NCBI GenBank assembly: GCA_964014485.1
Contig: CAXHAT010000125.1
Coordinates: 1 to 24,002 of the forward strand
From: an uncultured Deferribacteres bacterium
GTDB lineage: Bacteria; Zhuqueibacterota; Zhuqueibacteria; Zhuqueibacterales; Geothermadaptataceae
Direction of reading: 5' to 3'
DNA length: 24,002 nt
Shown here: positions 139 through 24,002 of the stretch, piece after piece
How the letters are laid out: each line of letters opens with the position of its first letter
Numbering within the stretch: position 1 is the first letter of the stretch
Notes under the pieces: generated by a model
The model's input: only the letters and a program-made list of their open reading frames with translations
What the model was told of the DNA's origin: nothing
Databases searched by the model: none
Made by a program: the position numbers and the translations under genes

Positions 139-534
139 ATGAAACTCGACCACATCGGCATTGCCGTAGCGGATTTGGAACAGGCGATTGCGCGCTACTC
201 AGGGCTTTTCCAGCGCGAACCGGATCATTTGGAAATTGTTGAAAATCAAAAAGTCAGCGTGGCGATGTTTAGTGCGGGGGAACCCGCAGTCGAACTTTTG
301 CAAGGCACGGACGACGACTCGCCGATTTCAAAATACATCGCCAAGAAAGGCGAAGGAATTCATCACATTTGTTTTCGTGTGGAGGATTTGGATAGCGCAG
401 TCGCGGCGGCGGAAAAGGCGGGGATGGAAAAGATCGGCCAGGAAAATGATCGCGGTGCGGGCGGGACGCGCGTGGCGTTTTTGCACCCCAAAACCACCGG
501 CGGCGTGCTTATCGAGCTTTCGGAAAAGAGATGA
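139..534 (+). CDS. mce: Methylmalonyl-CoA epimerase (VOC/glyoxalase fold)
   Basis: Motifs DHIGIAV, VELL, GEGIHHICF, GAGG..VAFLHPK..GGVLIEL. ATG at 139 follows AAGGA, while the ORF track's start at 76 lies inside a repeat. Confidence 0.9.
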   Translation: MKLDHIGIAVADLEQAIARYSGLFQREPDHLEIVENQKVSVAMFSAGEPAVELLQGTDDDSPISKYIAKKGEGIHHICFRVEDLDSAVAAAEKAGMEKIGQENDRGAGGTRVAFLHPKTTGGVLIELSEKR

Positions 535-542
535 CAGTTTTA

Positions 543-854
543 TTTTGACGGGATTTACACGATCTACAGGATTTGGCTCGTTACCAAACTGGAGTTTGGT
601 AACGCAATTTGTTCGAGAAGTTCTACCTTGACAATTTTAAGTTAAATCCTACGCTCTCAAGCGTCTCATTAGCGCCGTGCTTCAGCCCGGCGATTCGCAC
701 GCATTGAAGTGCGCGGCTAATGAGAACTTAACATTATCAAGCTACTTCTCGTTAAGAATTCGAAGTAAAACTTCGGAAGCAGCGGCGTAACCAAGTTTCA
801 ACTTGGTAACGAGACCAAAAACTTAATCTTGTTCATCCTGTTATCCCGTCAAAA
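543..854. repeat. Nested imperfect palindrome (REPIN/MITE-like composite)
   Basis: TTTTGACGGGAT 543-554 pairs with ATCCCGTCAAAA 843-854. CTCGTTACCAAACTGGAGTTTGGTAACG 577-604 pairs with CGTAACCAAGTTTCAACTTGGTAACGAG 786-813. TTGACAATTTTAAGTT 628-643 pairs with AACTTAACATTATCAA 725-740. TCTCATTAGC 664-673 pairs with GCTAATGAGA 716-725. Confidence 0.85.
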
Positions 855-894
855 AACAACTCGAACTAACGAATCCATATTTCTCGAATTAGTA

Positions 895-2748
895 ATGACG
901 ACTTCCGAAGCCTTACAAAAAAAACTCGCCAATCTGCCGACCCGCCCGGGCGTTTACCAATTCAAGGACAAGTCCGGCAAGATTATCTACATCGGCAAGG
1001 CCAAGGTTTTGCGCAACCGCGTGCGTTCCTATTTTCAGGACGGACGCGTCGAAGGCGCGAAGCTTTTTAGCCTGAAAAAACGCATTGCCGACCTTGAAAC
1101 CATCGTCACCGATTCCGAGATGGAAGCGTTGATCTTGGAAATGAATCTGGTCAAGGAGTACAAGCCGCGTTACAACGTCAATCTCAAGGACGACAAAAGT
1201 TTCCCCTACATCCGCGTCACCAACGAAGTCTTTCCGCGCATTTTCCCGACTCGAAAAATCATCCGCGACGGTTCGCGTTATTTTGGCCCTTACACGGACG
1301 TCAAAAATATGCGCGGCATTCTCAAACAAGTAAAGCGCATTTTCCCGATCCGAAGCTGCAACTACGACATCAACGACGAGACGATTGCCAAGAAGAAATT
1401 CAAGGTTTGTCTCGATTATCACATCCAAAAATGCGACGGCCCGTGTGAAGGATTGGTCGGCGCGGAAGAATACGGCGCGATGATCGACCAGATCGTAAAT
1501 TTTATCAACGGCCGCGACAAAGAAGTCGTCAAAGCGCTGACCGAACGCATGATGAAGTTCGCTGAGTTACAGCAATTCGAGCGAGCCGCCCGTCTGCGCG
1601 ACCGCATCAGGCTGATCGAGAATTTTCAACTCAAGCAAAAAATGGTCACTGATGATTTGAAAGACCGCGACGTGATTTCGGCGGCGATGGAGGATGAAGA
1701 CGCTTGCGGCGTGGTTTTCAAAGTGCGCGAGGGCAAGATCATCGGACGGCAGCATTTTTATTTGAAAGGAATTTTTAAAGACACTTTTGCTGAGGTCGTG
1801 ACTTCGTTCGTCAAGCAGTATTATTTGAAGGCGGAGTTCGTGCCAGCCGAAATTTACCTGCCGGAAGCGTTGGAAGAGCAGGAAGAAATTGAATCCTGGC
1901 TAGCGGAGAAGGCCGGCGGAACGGTGAAATTCATCGTGCCGCAAAAAGGCGAGAAAGCGCGCTTGGTGAGCATGTGCAACAAAAACGCGCAATTGCTTTT
2001 GCAGGAATTGCAAATTCAAAAATTGCGCGCGAAAGACAAACCGCCGCACGCCGTCGAGGCGCTTCAACGGGACTTGCGCCTCAAAAAACCGCCGCGCCGG
2101 ATTGAAGCGTTTGACATTTCCAATATTCAAGGAACCGATCCCGTCGCGTCGATGGTCTGCTTCGTCGACGGCGTAGCGAGAAAGTCGGACTACCGCAAAT
2201 TCAAAATTCGCATCAAGGATTCGCCGGACGATTTCGCGATGATGAACGAGGCGGTCGCACGACGCTACGGCGCTTCGCTTTCCGAAAAAATGCCGTTCCC
2301 TGATTTAATTCTGATCGACGGCGGCAAGGGGCAGCTCGGCGCTGCATTGCAAGCGTTAAAAACCACCAAGCATGACGACATCCCAATCGTCGCGCTCGCC
2401 AAACGCCTGGACGAAGTGTTCAAGCCCGGCGACCCCGAACCGCAAAACATCCCCCGCACTTCCAGCGGACTCAAACTCCTTCAGCGCTTGCGAGACGAAT
2501 CCCACCGTTTTGCCGTGACCTTCCACCGCTCCCTGCGACGCAAACGCACGACGGCCTCGGCCCTCGAACAAATCCCCGGCGTCGGCCCCGCGCGCCGCAA
2601 AGCGCTGATCAAATTCTTCGGCTCCGTCGATGGTGTCAAAGAAGCCTCGGTCGATGATCTCCAACTGGCGGAAAACGTCAATCAGGATTTGGCCGAGAAA
2701 ATTTGGGAGCATTTTCATGGGATGCGGGAAGACGAAGAAACGTCTTGA
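895..2748 (+). CDS. uvrC: Excinuclease ABC subunit C
   Basis: GIY-YIG domain (PGVY..IIYIGKAKVLRNRVRSYF), Cys cluster, UVR motif (FERAARLRD), RNase H-like domain (IEAFDISN, LILIDGGKGQL, RDESHRFA) and HhH (IPGVGP). ATG 895 chosen because the TTG at 829 lies in the repeat. Confidence 0.97.
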   Translation: MTTSEALQKKLANLPTRPGVYQFKDKSGKIIYIGKAKVLRNRVRSYFQDGRVEGAKLFSLKKRIADLETIVTDSEMEALILEMNLVKEYKPRYNVNLKDDKSFPYIRVTNEVFPRIFPTRKIIRDGSRYFGPYTDVKNMRGILKQVKRIFPIRSCNYDINDETIAKKKFKVCLDYHIQKCDGPCEGLVGAEEYGAMIDQIVNFINGRDKEVVKALTERMMKFAELQQFERAARLRDRIRLIENFQLKQKMVTDDLKDRDVISAAMEDEDACGVVFKVREGKIIGRQHFYLKGIFKDTFAEVVTSFVKQYYLKAEFVPAEIYLPEALEEQEEIESWLAEKAGGTVKFIVPQKGEKARLVSMCNKNAQLLLQELQIQKLRAKDKPPHAVEALQRDLRLKKPPRRIEAFDISNIQGTDPVASMVCFVDGVARKSDYRKFKIRIKDSPDDFAMMNEAVARRYGASLSEKMPFPDLILIDGGKGQLGAALQALKTTKHDDIPIVALAKRLDEVFKPGDPEPQNIPRTSSGLKLLQRLRDESHRFAVTFHRSLRRKRTTASALEQIPGVGPARRKALIKFFGSVDGVKEASVDDLQLAENVNQDLAEKIWEHFHGMREDEETS

Positions 2749-3053: not shown

Positions 3054-3386
3054 ATGCAGATAGAATTTACCCCGGAATTTAAGCGGAACATTCGGCGGCT
3101 CTCAAAAAAATATCGCAACATCAGATCGGACGTTGAGCCTCTCATAGAAGATTTAAAATCCGGCAAATCGCCAGGCGCTCAGGTCCGGCATACAGTTTAC
3201 AAAACGAGAATCAAGAATTCGAACCTAAAGAAAGGAAAGCGAGCTGGATACCGCCTCATTTACTACATAAAAACTCTATCCCAAATAATCCTCGTTACTA
3301 TTTACTCGAAGACCGAGCAAGGCGATATTTCTACAGATAAGGTTCGTCGAATTTTGAAAGAATTCGAAAGTTCGCCGCGAGACTGA
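3054..3386 (+). CDS. RelE/ParE superfamily (HigB2-like) toxin
   Basis: IEFTPEFKRNIRRLSKKY, VYKTRIKNS..KGKRAGYRLIYY and ILVTIYSKTEQ. Basic, 110 aa. Confidence 0.88.
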   Translation: MQIEFTPEFKRNIRRLSKKYRNIRSDVEPLIEDLKSGKSPGAQVRHTVYKTRIKNSNLKKGKRAGYRLIYYIKTLSQIILVTIYSKTEQGDISTDKVRRILKEFESSPRD

Positions 3387-15147: not shown

Positions 15148-17043
15148 TTATTTCAGAAAAGTGACGCGCCGCGAAAGCGTTTTCTCGCCAGCAGTGAGTT
15201 TTAAAAAGAACGCGCCCGAGGCGGCTTGCACGCCTGACTCATCCTCGCCGTTCCAAACAAGATTGCCGCTGCCAGTGAGACTTGAAAATGTTCGCACGAC
15301 TCTTCCGTGCAAATCGAAGATTTTCAAAACGCCGGTTTCGCCTGTGAGTACGCTGTATTCGATACGAAGCTCGGCGTTAAACGGCGTTGGATAAGCCTTC
15401 ATCAAAAATGGAACTTCGGATTCGAGCCTTTGCCTTTCTGTGACGGAGGTGAAGATTCCGCTAAAAACAAGATGCACCGCGCTTGCCTTGGGAATTTGGA
15501 AAAAAAGCGCGTTTTCTAAAATGTCGCTCATGCGTCCGGCGTATAAAATTTCGGGGCTGCTATCGTCGAACGTCCAAATATCGACATACTCGTAAAGTGC
15601 GTCACTCTCGATGCTAATATTCAAATCTTGCGCGGCGTCAAAATCCTTGTTGAGCAAAATAAGGTGCAGTTTCTCCGGCGCGTCTTCAACGATCGATGCG
15701 TAAACGGATATTTTCTCAATATTGCTTGAACTGGCCGCCACGCTGGTATTTCCGAAAGCCGCGAAATTGCCGTCATAGTTTCTGAACAAATTGTTCGCGG
15801 CGACAACGTAACTGTTGTCCTCGCCTTCCTGCCAGTAAGTCGCCAGATAGATGCCGTACTTGCCGAAAATCCCCAGCGCGTCAGCGTGAGCCAGCCCGCC
15901 GGAAACGTGCCCGCCGCCGCCATACGCGAATTCCGTAAAAGATAGCTTCGTGCCAGGGTAATAATTTTCTATCGACTGCTGAAGATTGGGAATGAGCGGT
16001 AAAAAATCCCTGCGCCACATGCCGATCCAACTGTCTTCAAAATAGGTGGGGTCCCACAAGGTGCGCGGAGCTTGCACGCGCGCTTCTACGTCCTTCGGCG
16101 TGAGCGCTTCGCCGTCAAAGACGATGCGATGATCGCCCCGCGCTTCCGGGTACCAATGCACGTCGAGAACGTCGATCAACCTGCGCCCGGCGCTTTCTTC
16201 CGCGTTCTTCATTTTGTCGAGATAATAATCGATAAACCAACGAAAGTTCTGGTTAATGACCGGCCAATCCAGCGCATCTTGCAGGGTGTGAAAGGCGTTG
16301 AATCCGTAAAGCGCCGGGCCAAGAATTTCCGCCGCCGGATCAACGTCTTTGATTGCCGCCGCCATTTCTATCGAACGATTGACAAGTTCGAGTCCAATGA
16401 TTTGCCCCGGAGAAATTCGCGGATGGGTAGAAGACCAAAGCGCCGGTTCATTGTCCAAGGCATACCACCTGACCCCGTCCACTTCTTGCGCTTGGCCAAA
16501 TTCAGAAATCAAGAAATTGACCAGTTCATCCATATAGACGGCGTTGTCTGTAAGATCGGGCGTTAGAGCAAATTCGCCGTCTTTTCGCGCCTTGGCCGCC
16601 ACCCATCTTGGCGAGGGCGCCGTTTCGTTTTCCTGCACCGTTCCATTCTTATCTTTTGCGACAAACCCGGCCATTTGAAGCGTGAGCACCGATTCCGCGC
16701 CAATCACCAGCGAGCGATCATGGAATTCGGTCATGACAATGCCTGGACGATTGGCTTGATTCGCCGGGATGTTCATAAACGAAACTAGAAAATCGTCGCT
16801 GGAATGGAACCAATCTTTCCCGGCGTTTGAAGCGTTATTTTCCCAGTTGTAGCCGGTCAGCCGATTGCCGCCCAAGCGCCGCACCGTCCAGGCGTCATTG
16901 TCGGACAAATCCTGATTGGAGCCGTAAATATAAGGGCTGATTGGTTTGCGCTGCTCGGAAGTGTTGATTGAAATTTGAATCTGAGCATTCGCCTGCAGCG
17001 TGATGAGAAGGCAAAAAATAGCACTGAAAAAACGCACCGCCAT
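15148..17043 (-). CDS. Secreted GH44 endoglucanase/xyloglucanase with C-terminal FlgD-Ig/Por-secretion-type domain
   Basis: Signal peptide. ISPYIYG, RLGGNRLTGYNWENNASNAG, DNEPALW (acid/base Glu), LDVHWYPE and FTEF (nucleophile Glu). Tail YPTPFN...IFDLHGRVVR...WNG.D.SG. Confidence 0.9.
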   Translation of the reverse strand: MAVRFFSAIFCLLITLQANAQIQISINTSEQRKPISPYIYGSNQDLSDNDAWTVRRLGGNRLTGYNWENNASNAGKDWFHSSDDFLVSFMNIPANQANRPGIVMTEFHDRSLVIGAESVLTLQMAGFVAKDKNGTVQENETAPSPRWVAAKARKDGEFALTPDLTDNAVYMDELVNFLISEFGQAQEVDGVRWYALDNEPALWSSTHPRISPGQIIGLELVNRSIEMAAAIKDVDPAAEILGPALYGFNAFHTLQDALDWPVINQNFRWFIDYYLDKMKNAEESAGRRLIDVLDVHWYPEARGDHRIVFDGEALTPKDVEARVQAPRTLWDPTYFEDSWIGMWRRDFLPLIPNLQQSIENYYPGTKLSFTEFAYGGGGHVSGGLAHADALGIFGKYGIYLATYWQEGEDNSYVVAANNLFRNYDGNFAAFGNTSVAASSSNIEKISVYASIVEDAPEKLHLILLNKDFDAAQDLNISIESDALYEYVDIWTFDDSSPEILYAGRMSDILENALFFQIPKASAVHLVFSGIFTSVTERQRLESEVPFLMKAYPTPFNAELRIEYSVLTGETGVLKIFDLHGRVVRTFSSLTGSGNLVWNGEDESGVQAASGAFFLKLTAGEKTLSRRVTFLK

Positions 17044-17278
17044 GACTTCCTCTGGAATTCAATGTAAATGAAAAATTTGCCAGAAAGATATTCTACTGTT
17101 ACTCGACGCCCTTGCTTGAAATACAAATTTTTCCGTCAATCCTTCTGTCTAAACAAGAACAGTGTCGACGTACTAAGTGCATCTCTTACAGATCAATTTC
17201 AAGCAAAAACAGGATTACGAATTCCTGGCTCCACAAACTGCGGTGCGAAAATTTGTTTTTGAGAAGAACGTTATTTTG

Positions 17279-18748
17279 TCAGGAGAGAGAAAGCTCGTAG
17301 TTTTTCAATAAACGGAGCGCTTCCAGGCGGAGGATTTCGGGGTAGATCGCTTTGTAAATATTGCAGTTGGGGGATTGCACATCGTAGCGGCCGGTGGCGC
17401 GGTAGGTTTCCTTGGGACAGCCGCCGGTACACCAATATTTCCACTCGCAATCGCGACAGCCTTCTTTTTCATCAACGGAAAGATTTTGCACGCCATCCTG
17501 ATCTGCGCGCACGGCAGTGAGGGGATCGTCCGAACGAACGTCTGAAACTCGTCGATCCATTTCCATCTGGCATTTTGATACGCCGCCAAAGTGATCGATG
17601 ACGAGGTAGTTATTGTCAGCCGCGCAAGGCGTGGCGTGCGGGGCCGCAAGGTTGCCGCGATCCGCCAATGAAGCCAGCAAGCTGCGATTCGGCAGGTTGT
17701 TTTCAATGATTTTGAACGCAGCCTTCATGCCGGAAATGATCTTCGTTTCTTCCAATTTTAATTCAGCATGAGTTTGGCTCGCGGCGTTTTCACGGTAAAA
17801 GTTAAGACTAAAAGGCAAGTCTTTTTCCAAAAGCCATTCGACGGTTTCGGGCAGTCGTTCCGCACTTTGGCCGGAAACGGTGACGCAAATATCAGGAATC
17901 AATCCTTCCGCCACGGTCATTTCAATATTTTCAGCGATTTTTTCAAAAGACGGCTTACCGTTCGCCGTCATACGCTGCCGGTCATGCATCTCGCCAACGC
18001 CGTCGAGAGAAATCATCAGTTTCAAATTGCGACGTTGCATTTGGCGGATCATTTTTTCGTTCAAGAGTGCGCCGTTGCTCAAAATCACGCCGCGTACGTC
18101 AACGCCCAAATCTTCGCCTTTTTCTAAAGCTTCGTCGTGCAATTGCAAAACAAGCGGCATGTTCATCGTCGGCTCGCCGCCGGCATATTTGAGCTTAATT
18201 TTTCCTAATCCGTTGGATTTCGCCGATCTGAAAATGGCGCCGAGCGCAAAACGTCCGGTTTCCAAATCCATCTTCTCTGTCGTTTTGTTGAGATAGCAAT
18301 AAGTACAGCGCAGATTGCAGGCGTTGGTGACGTGCAGCCAGGCGACAAGCGTGTCTTCAACCGCCAGATCCGTTTTTTCCTGCAATGCGTCGTGCAAAAA
18401 ACCGGCGCGATGAAGATCGGTAACGGCGGAAAATTCGGAGGCGCCGTCGAATGGTTCAGCGGAAAAGTTTTGGAGCGAAAAAGGCGTTTCAAAACGCCGC
18501 CAGATTTCGCGGGATGCGTCGTTCAGCAAAACCAGCGAAGCGCGGGAATGCGATGACGCAACGGCGGTAAATTCGCCGATCTGAAAACTGTGAGAAACGG
18601 GCGTTTGCTGAAGCAGAGCGTCAGCGGTGGGCAGGGATTTGTTTTCGGCGGGTGCGGAAAAAGAAAGGGGACAAGCGCAGTCCCCTTCAATCGTAAGAAT
18701 TTCACCATTCCATGCTGCGCGATCAAAGATGACGATAGGCGTTTTCAT
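17279..18748 (-). CDS. Radical SAM/SPASM-domain protein with RRE(PqqD)-like N-terminal region
   Basis: CNLRCTYC, GGEP, SNG, ISLDG, HDRQR. SPASM cysteines in PC..Y..KC and CRDCEWKYWCTGGCP..NC. ATG 18748 is 4 nt after the upstream stop; the alternative start is 18775. Confidence 0.93.
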   Translation of the reverse strand: MKTPIVIFDRAAWNGEILTIEGDCACPLSFSAPAENKSLPTADALLQQTPVSHSFQIGEFTAVASSHSRASLVLLNDASREIWRRFETPFSLQNFSAEPFDGASEFSAVTDLHRAGFLHDALQEKTDLAVEDTLVAWLHVTNACNLRCTYCYLNKTTEKMDLETGRFALGAIFRSAKSNGLGKIKLKYAGGEPTMNMPLVLQLHDEALEKGEDLGVDVRGVILSNGALLNEKMIRQMQRRNLKLMISLDGVGEMHDRQRMTANGKPSFEKIAENIEMTVAEGLIPDICVTVSGQSAERLPETVEWLLEKDLPFSLNFYRENAASQTHAELKLEETKIISGMKAAFKIIENNLPNRSLLASLADRGNLAAPHATPCAADNNYLVIDHFGGVSKCQMEMDRRVSDVRSDDPLTAVRADQDGVQNLSVDEKEGCRDCEWKYWCTGGCPKETYRATGRYDVQSPNCNIYKAIYPEILRLEALRLLKNYELSLS

Positions 18749-18752
18749 TCTC

Positions 18753-21545
18753 TCACTCGTAGATCGATATTTCATTGCTGAGTTGCAATGTCGCTCTTAG
18801 TTTCGTCTCCACAACTTGCAGGTTTTCTTGAATATCTTCCGGTTCCTGGCTCAATTTGTCGAGAAGTTTCTTGGTATAATTCATTGTTTCAATCGGCGTC
18901 GGCAGCGCATGCAGGCGCTCTTGCAGGCGATCCGCGATTTTGGTCAGGCGGCGCTGATATTCACCCGTAGAAAGCGCCGTCTCGTTTTTGGTTTGCGACA
19001 CAATGCCGCAAGCCTTGTACAGATTTTCAAAAGCCCGCTCGAAATTTTCGCGCTCAAAATAAACGTCGCCGGTGGTCAAGGCGACTTTGTCCAGCAAGTG
19101 CGGCAGGTTTTCCTTTTCGGCGATAACCGTGACTTGTTGGGCCATATCTTCAACCTGTGAGAACATCCTGCTCGCCTTATTCCGACTCATGCGCTTGACG
19201 GCTTTCGCCCACTCGTAGTAAAGCTCACTCAAATCTTCCAAATTCTCAGCTTCCGATTTCCGGTCGCCAATCTTCTGGCTGTATTCAAGGCTTTGACGCA
19301 GGTATTTGTCGGCTTCTTTCCGATCTTCCAATCCGCCGCGCTGTCTGAAAACGCAGCCGATCTCGTTGAGCGTCACGATGAGATAGGTCACATCGTTTTT
19401 CTCGTCGAAAACGCGCTTGGCCATTTTGAGATATTCCAAGGATTTATCGAAGTCGTTCGCCACGCGCATCATATGGCCGAGGTTGATGTGCACCAACGCC
19501 AAGCCGCGATCGCTGTGCGAAGCTTCAAAAAAGTTTTTGGCGGTGCGATAGAGTCGAGACGCTTCGCCAAAATAGCCCTGTTTTTCCTTGATCATGCCAA
19601 GCGTATTGTAACCCAGCCCCAATTCATAAGGAATCTCCAGTTCCTTGCGCAGTTGCAGCGCCTTGCCGACGTAGGTCAGCGCTTGCTCGATATTGTCTTT
19701 CCTAAAATAGACATACCCGATATTGTTCAGAGTGCGTGCAATATGTTTTTTGGAACTGGAGTATTTTAGAGAATCTTTGTAGTACTTGAGCGCGTCGTCC
19801 CAATCCGATTTGGCGCGATAAATATAGCCCCAGTTGTTGTAAAGCTGACCGATTTCCTTCTTGAGCAACTTGTGCAGCGAGGTTCCCGGCGCGGTTGCGG
19901 CCGCGTGCAGCAGGTTTTTATAAATGCGCTCCGCTTCAGCGGCGTGCTGCAAGGCATGCTTGTAATTGCCTGCGTAGGTCTCAAGTTCAATGAGAATCAT
20001 GTGACTGGTCGCTTGCAATTTCGGATCGGCATTTGGCTGCCGGATGAGCGCACTCCAATGTTCGCGAGCGCGCCGATAGTCATCCCTGCGAAAAGCGACG
20101 AGCGCTTGTTGAAATCTGAGTTGATCAATGCGGTCGTCGGGCAAATCGCGCTCAAAACGACTGGTTTCAGCATTGATCAGTTCGCAAAGCGAAACGTCGG
20201 TGCGATGGCTGGCTAATTTAAAAAGCGATTCGCCGTGCTTCGAGCCGCCGACGTTATCCTTTTCTAATTCATAATAAAGAAATTCCGCCAACAACGCTCG
20301 GACTTCATCCGACTTGGGCAATTCCTTGGCTTCCAAAACTTCCGGTTCGCCCATGCGCTCATGATACCAGGCCAAAACGTCGTCCAGCATGGCTTGTCGT
20401 GTCCAGCGACCTTCCGCCGGCCAAATGTGATAGTTGACCAATTCGCGCATCACGTCGTGTAGTTGAAACGAACCGTGAAAATTCTGCTCAGGATCCGGCT
20501 TGCGGTATTTCACAAAACTGTATTGCCCCAGACTTTCGAACAACTCAGCGGCTTTTTCCGGGGTGATTTTCAATAGCTGTGCGAGCAGGTCCGCCTCCAT
20601 GCGCCGCCACGCCAACGCCGTGGCCAGGATGACGTTACTCTGCTCGTCGCGCAGACGCAAAATCCAATCGACCAGTTTTTTGCTAAACGGGCCCGGGCCA
20701 TCGAGCAGTTCTTCCGCCGTACCCATTTCGTTGATAAGCCAATCGTAGCTGAGCGCGCCGAAAAGCGGTCTTCCGCCGCATCGCGTGTAAAGTTCGTCCA
20801 GTTGTTTGCGTGTAATTTTTCCGGGCAGAACGTCCCCTTCCTTAAAATAGCGGACAAACTCGGTTTTGTTGAGCGGCCCGAGTTCAATTTTGAGTACGTT
20901 TTGTCTCAGCGCTAGCGGAAAATGCACATCCAGACGACCGGCAAAGACGAAAATCAGCCCCGGCTTTTCAATAGCCTTTTTGTGCGGGTTGGCCTGCCAC
21001 TTGGCCTCGAGTTCTTTCAAAAGCGGCGAGAGTCGCGGCAACAATTTTTGCCCCATCCAATAGGCGATGGGCTGCATTTCTTCGCAGGTGTCGAACAGGA
21101 GGATTATTCGATTGCCCGCTTCCAGCAATTCGCGTAAATCCTGGATAAACGCGTCTTCAACACGGCCAAAAGCCTCTTGCTGCTGCCCCTTGTCCGGCCT
21201 GAGCTTCAGAACATCGTCATAGATTTTTCGCTGCTTCTCAAAGCGCTTAAAATACTCCAAACCTACGCGACGCGCGACCTCATTGAGCAGGCCGAATTGC
21301 GTTTGATTGGACGGCTTGTAAAAGTCGATGATGTCGGCGCAAAGCCATTCGCGCGTTTCGGTGCGCCGGCGAATTTCATCTTGCAAAACATGCAAAAAGC
21401 GCGTCTTGCCGATTCCGCCGTCCCCCTTGATGTTCACCATCCATTTTTTGCCGTTGTTCTGCAACAACCGCAAAACCTGATTGATTTGCTTTTGCCTTCC
21501 GACGAAAACCTTTCGGCTGTCGGTCGGGTGAAATTTCTTCTGCAT
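18753..21545 (-). CDS. STAND-type P-loop NTPase with C-terminal TPR array
   Basis: FVGR, Walker A GDGGIGKT, Walker B LLFDTCE, sensor FAGR, GxP (GGRPL) and winged-helix LHD. Repeated TPRs (YNNWGYIY, LNNIGYVY, YNTLGMI, INLG, LNEIG). Confidence 0.88.
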   Translation of the reverse strand: MQKKFHPTDSRKVFVGRQKQINQVLRLLQNNGKKWMVNIKGDGGIGKTRFLHVLQDEIRRRTETREWLCADIIDFYKPSNQTQFGLLNEVARRVGLEYFKRFEKQRKIYDDVLKLRPDKGQQQEAFGRVEDAFIQDLRELLEAGNRIILLFDTCEEMQPIAYWMGQKLLPRLSPLLKELEAKWQANPHKKAIEKPGLIFVFAGRLDVHFPLALRQNVLKIELGPLNKTEFVRYFKEGDVLPGKITRKQLDELYTRCGGRPLFGALSYDWLINEMGTAEELLDGPGPFSKKLVDWILRLRDEQSNVILATALAWRRMEADLLAQLLKITPEKAAELFESLGQYSFVKYRKPDPEQNFHGSFQLHDVMRELVNYHIWPAEGRWTRQAMLDDVLAWYHERMGEPEVLEAKELPKSDEVRALLAEFLYYELEKDNVGGSKHGESLFKLASHRTDVSLCELINAETSRFERDLPDDRIDQLRFQQALVAFRRDDYRRAREHWSALIRQPNADPKLQATSHMILIELETYAGNYKHALQHAAEAERIYKNLLHAAATAPGTSLHKLLKKEIGQLYNNWGYIYRAKSDWDDALKYYKDSLKYSSSKKHIARTLNNIGYVYFRKDNIEQALTYVGKALQLRKELEIPYELGLGYNTLGMIKEKQGYFGEASRLYRTAKNFFEASHSDRGLALVHINLGHMMRVANDFDKSLEYLKMAKRVFDEKNDVTYLIVTLNEIGCVFRQRGGLEDRKEADKYLRQSLEYSQKIGDRKSEAENLEDLSELYYEWAKAVKRMSRNKASRMFSQVEDMAQQVTVIAEKENLPHLLDKVALTTGDVYFERENFERAFENLYKACGIVSQTKNETALSTGEYQRRLTKIADRLQERLHALPTPIETMNYTKKLLDKLSQEPEDIQENLQVVETKLRATLQLSNEISIYE

Positions 21546-21561
21546 CAGGCGCCCTCTCCAG

Positions 21562-23973
21562 TTAAAAAGTGTTCCGCTGCAGCCCTAAAGGATGTAGATT
21601 CGGATCGCCAAACAGAACCCAGGAAGCCCATAAATCGGTGATAGACTTCCTGAGCTCTACTCGCGCTTCTCGAACCGCTTCGCCAATACTGTTTCCTCCT
21701 AAAAGCGATCTATAGAAGCAATGCGCAAAAACGCTTGCATCCTGATCATCTATCGGCCACATCGGGCCGAGGCAGCCGCTGGCTCCGGCTTCCAAAACGC
21801 CGGTGGCCACATTCTCAAGCATTCTCCCCTGCGCGCTGGATCGGGTTGATTCCGGCGCGGCAGAAGCCGCTTCACAAGCATTGAGAAAAAAGAAAGAATC
21901 ACATTTCAAATAACGTCTAAACTCTTCCGCGCGCATGGTCAATCGCGTCGTTGAACCGGCGCGTGGAAAATAAAGGCCGCTCAAAGGCGGCGAATCAACA
22001 TCGAAAAAACCGTGCCCCGCATAATGAATAATATGGTACTCGTTTTTGAAAAGATGCAAAACAAACGCTTCCAGAGTCGCTTGTTCTGATCCAAGCAAAA
22101 GATCCACGTCCACTTCGGACTCTCGCAGCATTTCTGCGACGGACGCCGCTTCCTGACGCGCCGAGGGCAAATCGCCGGTCGGGTCGCCGACCACCAGCGC
22201 AGTCAGTGCGCCGTTGGTTTCGTGCTCAGCAAGTCGTTTGACTTTCTTCTGTTCGCGGCGCATTTGGATTTGCCGCCCCAAAGAACGCGCCAAACAGAAG
22301 AACTCATCGCCGTCATGCATCAATTCGAACGGAATATCCATCGTATCCGTGGTCAACTGGACGGCGTGACGTTTACGCGCATTCAAAAATTCACTCGCTT
22401 CCTCTGGAAGGTAGGTCGACCAGGCCAAGCCGCCAACTGTTTCTAAATCCGTTCGCCAGGCGTCAAGACCGAATTTCATATCTGTATGATGCGTGTGCGA
22501 AGTGAGCATCGGCTCGTTCTGATTGCTCGACCAGGTAATTTGGTATTCCGCCGGGGGCGAATAATGAATTCTCAAATTGCACACCGCTGTCGGCTGGTGA
22601 GAATTCAAAAATTTATTCAAAAGCGCCAGCAATTCATTGACGCCTTTTCTCCCTAGAATTTCCCAAAATTCATAGTCTCCCTGATCCCGGCGCAGAAAGT
22701 TTCCCAGAAGTTTTAACTGAAATTTGTCATCGTCGCGTTGAACAAGAAACCATGTTTCAAGGCCTTCCGCAAAAGATTTTTTTGCTTCGGCAAGCGGATC
22801 ACGCTTTTCGAGCAGCGCCGTCTGAATTTGGTGATAGAGCAACTCACGCAGCGTCAAAACGCCGGGCTCGCCTTGCGACGCTTCCTGATTCAAGGATTTG
22901 GTGTAGATTTCAATCAACTTGCGATTGATTTCCAAAGCGCGTTGCGGATATAAAATCGAAGCCGCCGTATGCAAAATTCGCCGCAAGAGCGGATCAAGAT
23001 GATAGGCCGGATTGCCGTCGCTCATGTGAACGACATGAACCGTCGATTCCATGCACTCCTGCATCATCTTCTCATAATCGTTGCGATGGAATGCGGGATC
23101 GATAAATTCAAGCAACTTGGCGTCGAATCGACGCGGGAAACATGCGTTCAAAAAGTTGTCGCCAGGCCAAATCTCAGCGGTCGGCAATAGTTTTTTGCTA
23201 ATAACTTTATCAAAGAGCTTTTGCGCAAGGTCCGAACGTTTGTGAGGCAAATCATCGAGTTCAACATCCAACTCCTGCAAGTGCAGCATCAGAGCTTCCG
23301 TGCTGAACGGATGGCCTTTGGTCAATTTGTAGATTTCGCGCTTCTGCGGCGGCAAAAAACTCTGCGGCGCAAGCTGTTCAATGTGGAAAGAAGTATTTTT
23401 AAAATCGAAGGCGTTAATGTAGTGCTGACGTATTGCTTGCCGATACTGAAACGGCCAATAACTTTTCTCAACTCGCGGGCCGCGCCCCGCCAAAAAAACC
23501 GCCACTTTCGGCGTCCCGGCTTTTTGTAAATCCTGGATAAAATTGTTGCCTATCCAATCGAAGAACTTGGCTTCGCAACACTGGCAACTGTCGTAAATCA
23601 GGACAACGGGCTTGCGCTTCAGCGCTTCGATGTATGACGCCGGAACCGCCTTTTCGGTGTGGCCGTTAACCATCTTTTGCGGCGCAATGTAATTATGTAA
23701 TTTGAGATAAAAACGAGATACGGATTCTTCGAAGGAGAGATTTTCGAACGCCCCAAAATCAAATAGCAACGTCTGAACGCCTTTTGCCGCACAGCGATTT
23801 TGAATCTGCTCGATCAAACGCGACTTCCCGACTCCGGAAATGCCGTAGTAATCGACGCCCGCCAGCAAGTATTTTTTGCGACTTTTGATCCGGTCGAGCA
23901 ACGCGTCAATGCGCGACAGCTCAGCTTCCCGGTCAATAAACCGCGCGTTCTCTGACATTGTTTTTTTCCCCAT
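21562..23973 (-). CDS. STAND-type P-loop NTPase fused to C-terminal CHAT (caspase-like) protease
   Basis: FIDRE, Walker A GISGVGKS, Walker B LIYDSCQ, LAGR and KGHP. CHAT motifs IPFELMHD, VVGDP.GDLP.A..EA, IIHYAGHG (His), LNACE (Cys), GPMWPIDD and WASWVLFGDP. The start may instead be 23958. Confidence 0.9.
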   Translation of the reverse strand: MGKKTMSENARFIDREAELSRIDALLDRIKSRKKYLLAGVDYYGISGVGKSRLIEQIQNRCAAKGVQTLLFDFGAFENLSFEESVSRFYLKLHNYIAPQKMVNGHTEKAVPASYIEALKRKPVVLIYDSCQCCEAKFFDWIGNNFIQDLQKAGTPKVAVFLAGRGPRVEKSYWPFQYRQAIRQHYINAFDFKNTSFHIEQLAPQSFLPPQKREIYKLTKGHPFSTEALMLHLQELDVELDDLPHKRSDLAQKLFDKVISKKLLPTAEIWPGDNFLNACFPRRFDAKLLEFIDPAFHRNDYEKMMQECMESTVHVVHMSDGNPAYHLDPLLRRILHTAASILYPQRALEINRKLIEIYTKSLNQEASQGEPGVLTLRELLYHQIQTALLEKRDPLAEAKKSFAEGLETWFLVQRDDDKFQLKLLGNFLRRDQGDYEFWEILGRKGVNELLALLNKFLNSHQPTAVCNLRIHYSPPAEYQITWSSNQNEPMLTSHTHHTDMKFGLDAWRTDLETVGGLAWSTYLPEEASEFLNARKRHAVQLTTDTMDIPFELMHDGDEFFCLARSLGRQIQMRREQKKVKRLAEHETNGALTALVVGDPTGDLPSARQEAASVAEMLRESEVDVDLLLGSEQATLEAFVLHLFKNEYHIIHYAGHGFFDVDSPPLSGLYFPRAGSTTRLTMRAEEFRRYLKCDSFFFLNACEAASAAPESTRSSAQGRMLENVATGVLEAGASGCLGPMWPIDDQDASVFAHCFYRSLLGGNSIGEAVREARVELRKSITDLWASWVLFGDPNLHPLGLQRNTF

Positions 23974-24002
23974 CTAACTGTGAACTTCCTGATTCCGTAG
24001 AC

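Follow-up and report, generated by a model that had tools for sequence, protein, structure and literature searches.

The Fxs module, which belongs to bacteria of multicellular habit and was predicted to be a conflict system, combines a radical S-adenosylmethionine (rSAM)/SPASM enzyme with a peptide, a zincin peptidase and an AP-ATPase carrying tetratricopeptide repeats (AP-ATPase-TPR) or a TIR-NTPase (Kaur, Burroughs, Iyer and Aravind 2020, eLife, PMC7159879). Avs2 of Klebsiella pneumoniae needs the rSAM accessory protein Avap1 against some phages, by a mechanism described as unknown (Nat Commun 2024, PMC11564622). In this study, a trio of genes was analysed in a 24,002-bp stretch of DNA, the window, which is the entire contig CAXHAT010000125.1 of an uncultured Deferribacteres bacterium with a genome of 8.4 Mb in 465 contigs. 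The three open reading frames (ORFs) are all on the minus strand and fill the last 6.7 kb of the window. Gene 1 (21562–23973) encodes P0001, an 803-aa putative NTPase of the STAND type (signal transduction ATPases with numerous domains) with a repeat-less nucleotide-binding oligomerisation domain (NOD) plus a CHAT protease at the C-terminus. Gene 2 (18753–21545) encodes P0002, a 930-aa STAND NTPase with a C-terminal TPR array. Gene 3 encodes an rSAM/SPASM enzyme with a domain resembling the recognition element (RRE) of peptides made on ribosomes and then modified after translation (RiPPs) and with an N-terminal Cys-motif tail; it spans 17279–18748 in a 489-aa form (P0005) or 17279–18775 in a 498-aa form (P0003). 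We lean towards the explanation that the trio is an operon of a widespread, unnamed three-component conflict-type system of the NLR (nucleotide-binding, leucine-rich repeat)/STAND kind, working by the mechanism proposed below. Among conflict systems of the STAND/NLR type, the unit is most likely a variant not yet described, in which the rSAM enzyme would be self-tagged.

The closest described theme is the peptide-processing and AP-ATPase-TPR combination of Fxs. The likeness consists in a peptide-modifying rSAM/SPASM enzyme coupled to a STAND (AP-ATPase)-TPR protein and a TIR-NTPase (PMC7159879). In contrast to Fxs, the unit is without the FxSxx peptide, the zincin peptidase and the vWA-MoxR-VMAP core, its putative substrate motif is built around Cys and forms one polypeptide with the enzyme, and it has two separate STAND proteins, one sensor-like with TPRs and the other an effector carrier. 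No zincin peptidase of the Fxs type was found among the window ORFs, and P0003 scored 47.6 bits against the FxsB model TIGR04269, whose cut-off is 370. The FxsB/FxsC gene set had already been judged different in a first-pass annotation of this DNA made from the letters alone, and these results agree with it. The likeness to Avs2/Avap1 is that an NLR-like STAND defence protein and an rSAM gene share one operon (PMC11564622). However, Avap1 is described as viperin-like, whereas the enzyme of the unit is an RRE and SPASM maturase with a putatively tethered motif. Moreover, Avs2 is a single STAND protein with its own effector, unlike the pair of the unit (PMC11564622), and neither P0001 nor P0002 was matched by an Avs model of PADLOC. 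In the cyclophane RiPP clusters that carry HaaT-type proteins (NCBIfam NF041717), a SPASM maturase is likewise encoded with a large TPR protein; P0002 is not a member of that family (38.9 bits vs a cut-off of 1125). No description of the unit was found in open-access papers and bioRxiv full text, a search that did not cover the supplementary tables of PMC7159879. A term search for radical SAM gave no mention in the 2021 Death/TRADD-N paper (PMC8195603), and the 2026 ParA preprint has rSAM enzymes only in unrelated contexts. Together with the NCBIfam and PADLOC results given below, this is in line with the first-pass annotation, which knew of no described system with this trio.

The genes of the trio are tightly packed. 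A 16-nt spacer (21546–21561) lies between genes 1 and 2 and contains the Shine-Dalgarno (SD)-like sequence GGAGAGGG ahead of the gene 2 ATG. The first ATG of gene 3 (18775) would give a 23-nt overlap with gene 2. The ATG at 18748 is located 4 nt past the TGA of gene 2, is preceded by the purine-rich, SD-like sequence GAGTGAGAGA and is the start used by P0005, a protein of a public collection. The spacings of 16 and 4 nt reported in the first-pass annotation were correct, the latter given a start at ATG 18748. A terminator-like hairpin with a T-run (17210–17227, minus strand) is located about 50 nt past the rSAM stop and is likely the 3' end of the operon, which is weak evidence because one site was found against 0.4 expected. 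Considering the 16- and 4-nt spacers, the SD-like sequences in both and the terminator-like hairpin after gene 3, the trio is a single operon. The same annotation had also suggested another gene beyond the window, from an open frame (..LRNQEVHS*) whose TAG abuts ATG 23973. This suggestion was not borne out, because merely nine open codons lie between that TAG and the contig end and the frame is therefore no evidence of a gene. A separate precursor gene was sought in the window and none was found, the intergenic gaps being too short; the 235-nt stretch past the rSAM gene, inspected by eye, holds only a 10-codon ORF, which was taken as chance. Close paralogues were not found in the window's own genome.

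The same gene arrangement was found in many other genomes. A scan of one genome per species gave 80 loci, among which L001–L049 were taken as relatives of the enzyme proper. The survey set was composed of 55 loci, namely the window, L001–L049 and five loci from the window's own phylum (L087–L091). A STAND-TPR gene is present beside the rSAM gene in 47 of the 55 loci, directly upstream on the same strand in 46 and convergent in one. Six of the eight remaining loci stop at a contig end on the side in question, and two (L044 and L045) truly have no such gene. A second, repeat-less NTPase consisting of a NOD adjoins the STAND-TPR gene in 41 of the 47 loci. An independent single-sequence search gave 34 STAND-TPR hits. 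The loci span Chloroflexota, Nostoc, Actinomycetota, Ca. Vecturithrix and the window's phylum. Such an arrangement, found in the same order in 47 of the 55 loci, goes far beyond what chance would give. The first-pass annotation had treated the three genes as one unit and had named their failure to co-occur in other genomes as the finding that would speak against it; the neighbourhood survey found them together in conserved order. No conserved fourth gene was found in the survey, where the upstream and downstream neighbours vary between loci. Within the window's phylum, the rSAM gene has a patchy spread and was present in no more than 6 of 167 genomes. Three relatives belonging to the same order have a CHAT-bearing trio that stands between a DUF255/thioredoxin-like gene and a reelin/NIDO-repeat gene; one of the three has an inserted Schlafen-like ATPase, and another is L090 (genome G162, unpublished). 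Relatives have an unrelated DUF255/thioredoxin-like gene as upstream neighbour, or else a Schlafen-like ATPase or GNAT gene. At L087 (2793–7821, genome G161), a Schlafen AlbA_2/HATPase_c_4 gene separates the trio from the DUF255 flank gene, upstream of which an AAA_35 NTPase gene is found. The extra genes are possibly a small accretion of defence genes.

In the conserved unit, a NOD without repeats, whose effector or adaptor can be swapped, is followed by the STAND-TPR protein and this by the rSAM enzyme. The trio proposed in the first-pass annotation stands as a conserved unit, but CHAT does not define it, because the second NTPase carries other effectors or none elsewhere. The CHAT form is a rare variant, counted as a fusion in 6 of the 55 loci and as a separate gene in one. 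It has CHAT at the C-terminus of the repeat-less NTPase in the window, L012, L087, L088 and L090 (also P0125). The same protein carries TIR in L005, L010, L014, L029, L033 (with EAD7) and L034, trypsin in L037, SIR2 in L091 (genome G158, unpublished) and DUF4062 in L089. It carries EAD9 in the Nostoc loci L003, L006, L007 and L016, beside a trypsin-EAD9 gene and a Trypco1 gene; EAD9 was not detected in the NTPase as called at a fifth Nostoc locus, L019. EAD2 was found in L018 and the bacterial Death-like domain 1 (bDLD1) in L023. At least nine loci have no effector domain on this NTPase, often with two further unknown genes. A separate CHAT gene is present at L039 and a separate SIR2-like gene at L015 and L025. 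In a tree of 67 rSAM cores, at least 14 changes of effector state were counted over 29 scored rows, two of them for CHAT and five for TIR. Such effector swapping is typical of conflict systems. The shuffling of effectors and effector-associated domains (EADs) on a constant core also fits the account of NTP-dependent conflict systems in multicellular bacteria by Kaur et al. (PMC7159879). As separate observations, the effector-less loci L017, L041, L047 and L049 have two more conserved upstream genes of about 430 and 460 aa, one with a C-terminal Trans_reg_C winged helix and the other without a Pfam match, and in Dictyobacter the unit is followed downstream by an added STAND-WD40 protein of about 1250 aa (L015, 13095–16853; L025, 12951–16616).

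The two NTPases of the window differ in their architecture. The NOD of gene 2 (20226–21506, minus strand; about residues 14–440) was assigned from an alignment and contains Walker A GDGGIGKT (K47), Walker B LLFDTCEE (D152), R204, GRP (P260) and LHD at residues 362–364. In alignment A3 of 33 sequences, G44, G46, K47, D152 and P260 are invariant, and L362, H363 and D364 are near-invariant. A sensor-like TPR array follows (18756–20138, minus strand; about residues 470–930), as indicated by Pfam TPR families and an all-helical repeat model. With NOD motifs followed by a repeat array, P0002 is a STAND NTPase. Its Pfam matches are AAA_16 (37.2 bits vs a cut-off of 32.6), TPR_12 (84 bits), TPR_MalT (49 bits) and many other TPR families. 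The AlphaFold2 model of P0002 has a predicted local distance difference test score (pLDDT) of 89.4 and a predicted template modelling score (pTM) of 0.83, and its top Foldseek matches are the archaeal STAND-TPR protein PH0952 (6MFV) and Avs3 bound to terminase (8DGC). The TPR profile matches include kinesin-light-chain, LGN/Pins, PH0952 and AfsR TPRs.

The NOD of gene 1 (22774–23940, minus strand; about residues 12–400) was recognised by its motifs and an alignment, namely Walker A GISGVGKS (K50), Walker B LIYDSC (D128), AGRG and GHP (P222). Its NTPase matches (AAA_16, ATPase_2 and nSTAND6) are all under the Pfam cut-offs (AAA_16, 25.3 vs 32.6 bits), with P-loop matches over residues 12–222. 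The domain is alignable with the NOD-only proteins of other loci by phmmer and hidden Markov models (HMMs), and in alignment A4 (22 rows) G47 and P222 are invariant. The CHAT (caspase-like) domain (21604–22338, minus strand) was identified with Pfam PF12770 (104 bits vs a cut-off of 24, E 1.3e-29, residues 546–790) and the alignment. It contains His654 (HYAGHG) and Cys700 (LNACEA), which we take from general knowledge of the fold to be the catalytic residues and which are retained in 10 of 10 CHAT-bearing A4 rows. P0001 gave no match among PDB sequences. A homologue search with P0001 gave 9 hits, which came from 8000 candidates sharing most short words and say little on the rarity of the fusion; orthologues of gene 1 are found in L012, L087, L088 and L090 and as P0125. 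In sensor/helper NLR pairs and in NAIP-NLRC4, a NOD protein that has a sensor array but lacks an effector is paired with one that has an effector but lacks a sensor. P0001 and P0002 resemble such pairs by analogy only, and their own two NODs are barely alignable (BLASTP E 0.026).

Gene 3 encodes a RiPP-maturase-type rSAM/SPASM enzyme, as P0003 has the CX3CX2C motif, seven invariant C-terminal Cys and an RRE. The rSAM core CNLRCTYC (C153, C157 and C160) and the SPASM-type Cys (C384, C402, C440, C443, C449, C453 and C471) lie within 17336–18337 (minus strand); they are invariant columns in alignments A1 and A2, and the region was also recognised with Pfam and NCBIfam. The RRE-like (PqqD-like) domain (18371–18616, minus strand) was assigned from the strands and helices of residues 45–114 in the AlphaFold2 model and from a Foldseek alignment with CteB over 458 columns. 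Pfam Radical_SAM (PF04055) matched P0003 with 58.9 bits against a cut-off of 29.5. The Pfam scan gave no SPASM model, and the SPASM call stands on the Cys pattern, partial NCBIfam matches and the fold. In NCBIfam, 73 families match. Those listed, 25 in number, all stay under their cut-offs, and P0003 is thus outside the named maturase families, SCIFF included; the best partial matches are PapB (148 bits vs 340), then DynA, the nif11 rSAM family and QhpD (107 vs 453). The model of P0003 (pLDDT 88.8, pTM 0.90) is closest in Foldseek to CteB (5WHY/5WGG, E 9e-20), then to anSME, ChlB and TigE, and its fold is that of an RRE and SPASM maturase, not viperin-like. PapB and QhpD are Cys-Asp/Glu thioether enzymes, and CteB is a sactipeptide thioether synthase. 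These three share the RRE, rSAM and SPASM fold with P0003, and a Cys/Asp-rich substrate would be common to them. However, P0003 scores far under the family cut-offs (340 and 453), and the putative substrate motif and its fusion to the enzyme differ. Judging from sequence searches, the rSAM family is large. Among 8000 scored candidates, 3044 were found at E ≤ 0.001, a number that also takes in radical SAM proteins of more distant relationship. Identity is 44–62% for the best 120 hits listed, of which the few with a named source are labelled candidate division KSB1, Chloroflexota or Anaerolineae. As a side observation, the STAND-linked rSAM enzymes of L037 (9869–11074) and L042 (9974–11233) are without the RRE-like domain; an N-terminus of 54–58 aa with one or two QCDCA motifs leads straight into the rSAM core.

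The tail of the rSAM enzyme is a variable segment of about 45–70 residues N-terminal to the RRE-like domain. It contains a D-C-A-C motif (D32, C33, A34 and C35 of P0003; 18671–18682, minus strand), which is proposed to be a tethered core peptide from its conservation, its low pLDDT and its stand-alone copies in relatives. In alignment A2 of 76 sequences, both Cys of the motif are invariant, D and A are at least 90% conserved, and the flanks are variable. Among 120 homologues, 109 carry CxC in this segment, the remaining ones being mostly N-terminally short, and the motif is often extended to (DC)n-AC or occurs in 2–4 copies. DC[AD]C occurs 50 times inside rSAM genes versus 9 times across all other six-frame sequence of the same loci. 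At L030 (5950–7549, Ardenticatenaceae), the N-terminal motif is degenerate with a single Cys, and CDCAC/DDCAC is found at the extreme C-terminus instead; this rSAM gene contains masked or ambiguous bases and is broken into two ORFs. In the AlphaFold2 model of P0003, the motif region has a pLDDT of 54, and residues 1–10 form a short strand with a pLDDT of 87. An RRE-docked leader with a floppy core would look like this.

The motif was also found outside the enzyme. In the STAND-less loci L044 and L045, the enzyme is 35–37% identical and has no tail; here the motif stands at the end of a small ORF located just upstream, which encodes a 50-aa peptide in L044 (5728–5880) and a 38-aa peptide in L045 (2486–2602). 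A third split case with a tail-less enzyme, a small upstream ORF ending in the motif and no STAND gene, L177, was obtained when 401 genomes of one phylum were searched. All three STAND-less pairs sit among housekeeping genes, which at L177 are ProRS, MreB, MreC and PBP2 genes. The pairing of a RiPP precursor with its maturase is seen in L044, L045 and L177; the window has its copy of the motif within the enzyme itself. Because the same motif ends a stand-alone upstream peptide in STAND-less relatives, the tail of the rSAM enzyme is probably a fused substrate, and the motif seems to behave as a RiPP core whether free-standing or enzyme-fused. In the rSAM tree, all STAND-linked enzymes fall in one 49-row clade with an SH-aLRT (Shimodaira-Hasegawa-like approximate likelihood ratio test) support of 96, and L044 with L045 and L178 with L179 are outside it. 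Borosin OphMA is a methyltransferase that holds enzyme and core peptide in one polypeptide and modifies its C-terminal core autocatalytically in a single turnover, giving a natural product. The likeness is the enzyme-core fusion; OphMA differs in enzyme class, in the position of the core and in having no STAND system. Two other substrates or reactions were considered and rejected. The STAND proteins are unlikely substrates of the rSAM enzyme, because Cys is conserved in neither STAND alignment. For an anSME-like formylglycine reaction, the sulfatase motif C/S-x-P/A-x-R is absent around the rSAM motif. Separately, a 588-aa ORF beside the peptide and rSAM pair of L045, in a small-genome bacterium (369–2135, minus strand), was judged by eye to be large-serine-recombinase-like.

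The trio quite probably belongs to a conflict or cell-death system. It does look like the NLR- or inflammasome-like conflict module suggested in the first-pass annotation, with a conserved unit and swapped effectors. We infer self-modification and its chemistry, the sensing roles of the STAND proteins, their hetero-oligomerisation and the defence role as follows. The product of gene 2 (component A), a STAND protein with a long, fast-evolving TPR array and no effector, would be the likely sensor. The product of gene 1 (component B), with a related NOD, no repeats and an output domain (here CHAT), would be the likely executor, and it would be recruited and activated via co-oligomerisation with component A. 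The N-terminus of the gene 3 product (component C), a highly conserved enzyme, would consist of a leader-like strand, a flexible loop with D-C-A-C and then the RRE. Component C would most likely introduce a single-turnover cross-link into its own tail, in cis or between molecules; a Cys-based thioether is probable because of the likeness to CteB, PapB and QhpD. In its modified (or unmodified) form, the tail would act as a ligand or licence of internal origin, linking the enzyme to the STAND pair. That the TPR array reads the modified tail is possible but doubtful, and tail-to-STAND communication is the weakest step in the scheme. The output of the window's variant would be CHAT proteolysis leading to growth arrest or cell death upon invasion. 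The full form of this explanation is an immune or cell-death system in which the rSAM enzyme cross-links its tethered peptide once per molecule and the state of the tail, dependent on SAM and reducing power at the time of enzyme synthesis, licenses or triggers the NLR-like pair, as an internal messenger or as a guard of SAM/Fe-S metabolism against phage. In this form it is tentative and rather unlikely.

Several observations weigh against the proposed system or its mechanism. Across phyla, the TPR protein is about 20% identical and the rSAM enzyme 45–57%, with an invariant rSAM motif; this variability of the TPR protein means that a variable foreign ligand is a better fit than an invariant tail. 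AlphaFold2 does not put the motif region of P0003 in the active site. Some STAND-linked members have a degenerate motif, with CxxxC in L015 and L025 and a single Cys in L020, or are without the RRE (L037 and L042). L177, a case with a stand-alone peptide, is placed by the rSAM tree within the fused clade, and this position is not firmly supported. PADLOC v2 gave no specific match (Avs, pVip etc.) and only weak generic ones: the CHAT part matched BovA (28 bits), a TPR model scored 35 bits and the rSAM core matched pVip (63 bits). A viral collection yielded no orthologue, only distant rSAM relatives with partial matches of at most 34% identity. The other genes of the window are housekeeping genes (UvrC, FBPase, amidase and GH44) except one RelE/ParE-like ORF, and the window is therefore not a defence island. 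The profiles behind the HMM-based locus counts had been trained on many of the surveyed loci.

The first alternative is a RiPP or signalling-peptide cluster of the ordinary kind. The rSAM enzyme would then mature a peptide, be it its own tail or one that is not annotated, for release as a signal or antibiotic, and the STAND proteins would be regulators or scaffolds of its production or perception, as in development or kin recognition. The enzyme is indeed of the RiPP-maturase type with an RRE, and some relatives have their precursor peptide encoded separately. Gene clusters are controlled by STAND-TPR proteins like AfsR, MalT and the LAL regulators, AfsR is among the TPR profile matches of P0002, and the proteases of component B (CHAT and trypsin) could free a peptide. 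However, Pfam revealed no DNA-binding domain in P0001 or P0002, and no transporter or leader peptidase is conserved beside the unit in the surveyed neighbourhoods. A core placed between leader and enzyme would also need two cuts for its release. Furthermore, many variants of component B carry TIR, SIR2, DUF4062, Death-like or EAD domains, which are cell-death or immune modules and not biosynthetic ones. The alternative is thus unlikely.

The enzyme could also be an accessory of STAND defence like Avap1 of Avs2, acting on a nucleotide, a phage or host protein or a STAND partner, with the Cys motif as a metal, cluster or regulatory site. Besides the Avs2/Avap1 precedent, the TPR array is too variable for tuning to an invariant tail, and Cys-x-Cys runs can bind metals. 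On the other side, the motif ends stand-alone peptides beside tail-less relatives, which is the classic precursor/maturase layout, and its copy number varies and its position is once at the opposite end of the protein, a pattern unusual for a structural metal site. The fold of an RRE and SPASM maturase and the STAND partners without conserved Cys also argue against it, and we consider an accessory of this kind decidedly unlikely. That the trio is adjacent by chance or shares transcription only is highly improbable and is contradicted by the neighbourhood survey, with its order and tight spacing in 47 of 55 loci from several phyla with differing flanks.

Two further genes of the window were noted. 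The glycoside hydrolase family 44 protein (15148–17043, minus strand), with a weak C-terminal match to a Por/T9SS sorting domain, is directly downstream of the trio and unrelated to it. The RelE/ParE-like ORF (3054–3386, plus strand) encodes 110 aa with toxin matches of 28.8 and 25.4 bits, amid housekeeping genes.

If the explanation as a three-component conflict-type system is true, a peptide-cross-linking radical enzyme with its own substrate would be a third, chemically unusual part of bacterial NLR-like immunity. The two NTPases would be a natural split sensor/executor STAND pair in bacteria. For RiPP enzymology, the unit would provide a self-modifying radical SAM/SPASM enzyme, a layout that was not found described. 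The domain-swapped variants with CHAT, TIR, SIR2, trypsin or Death-like domains are ready comparative experiments.

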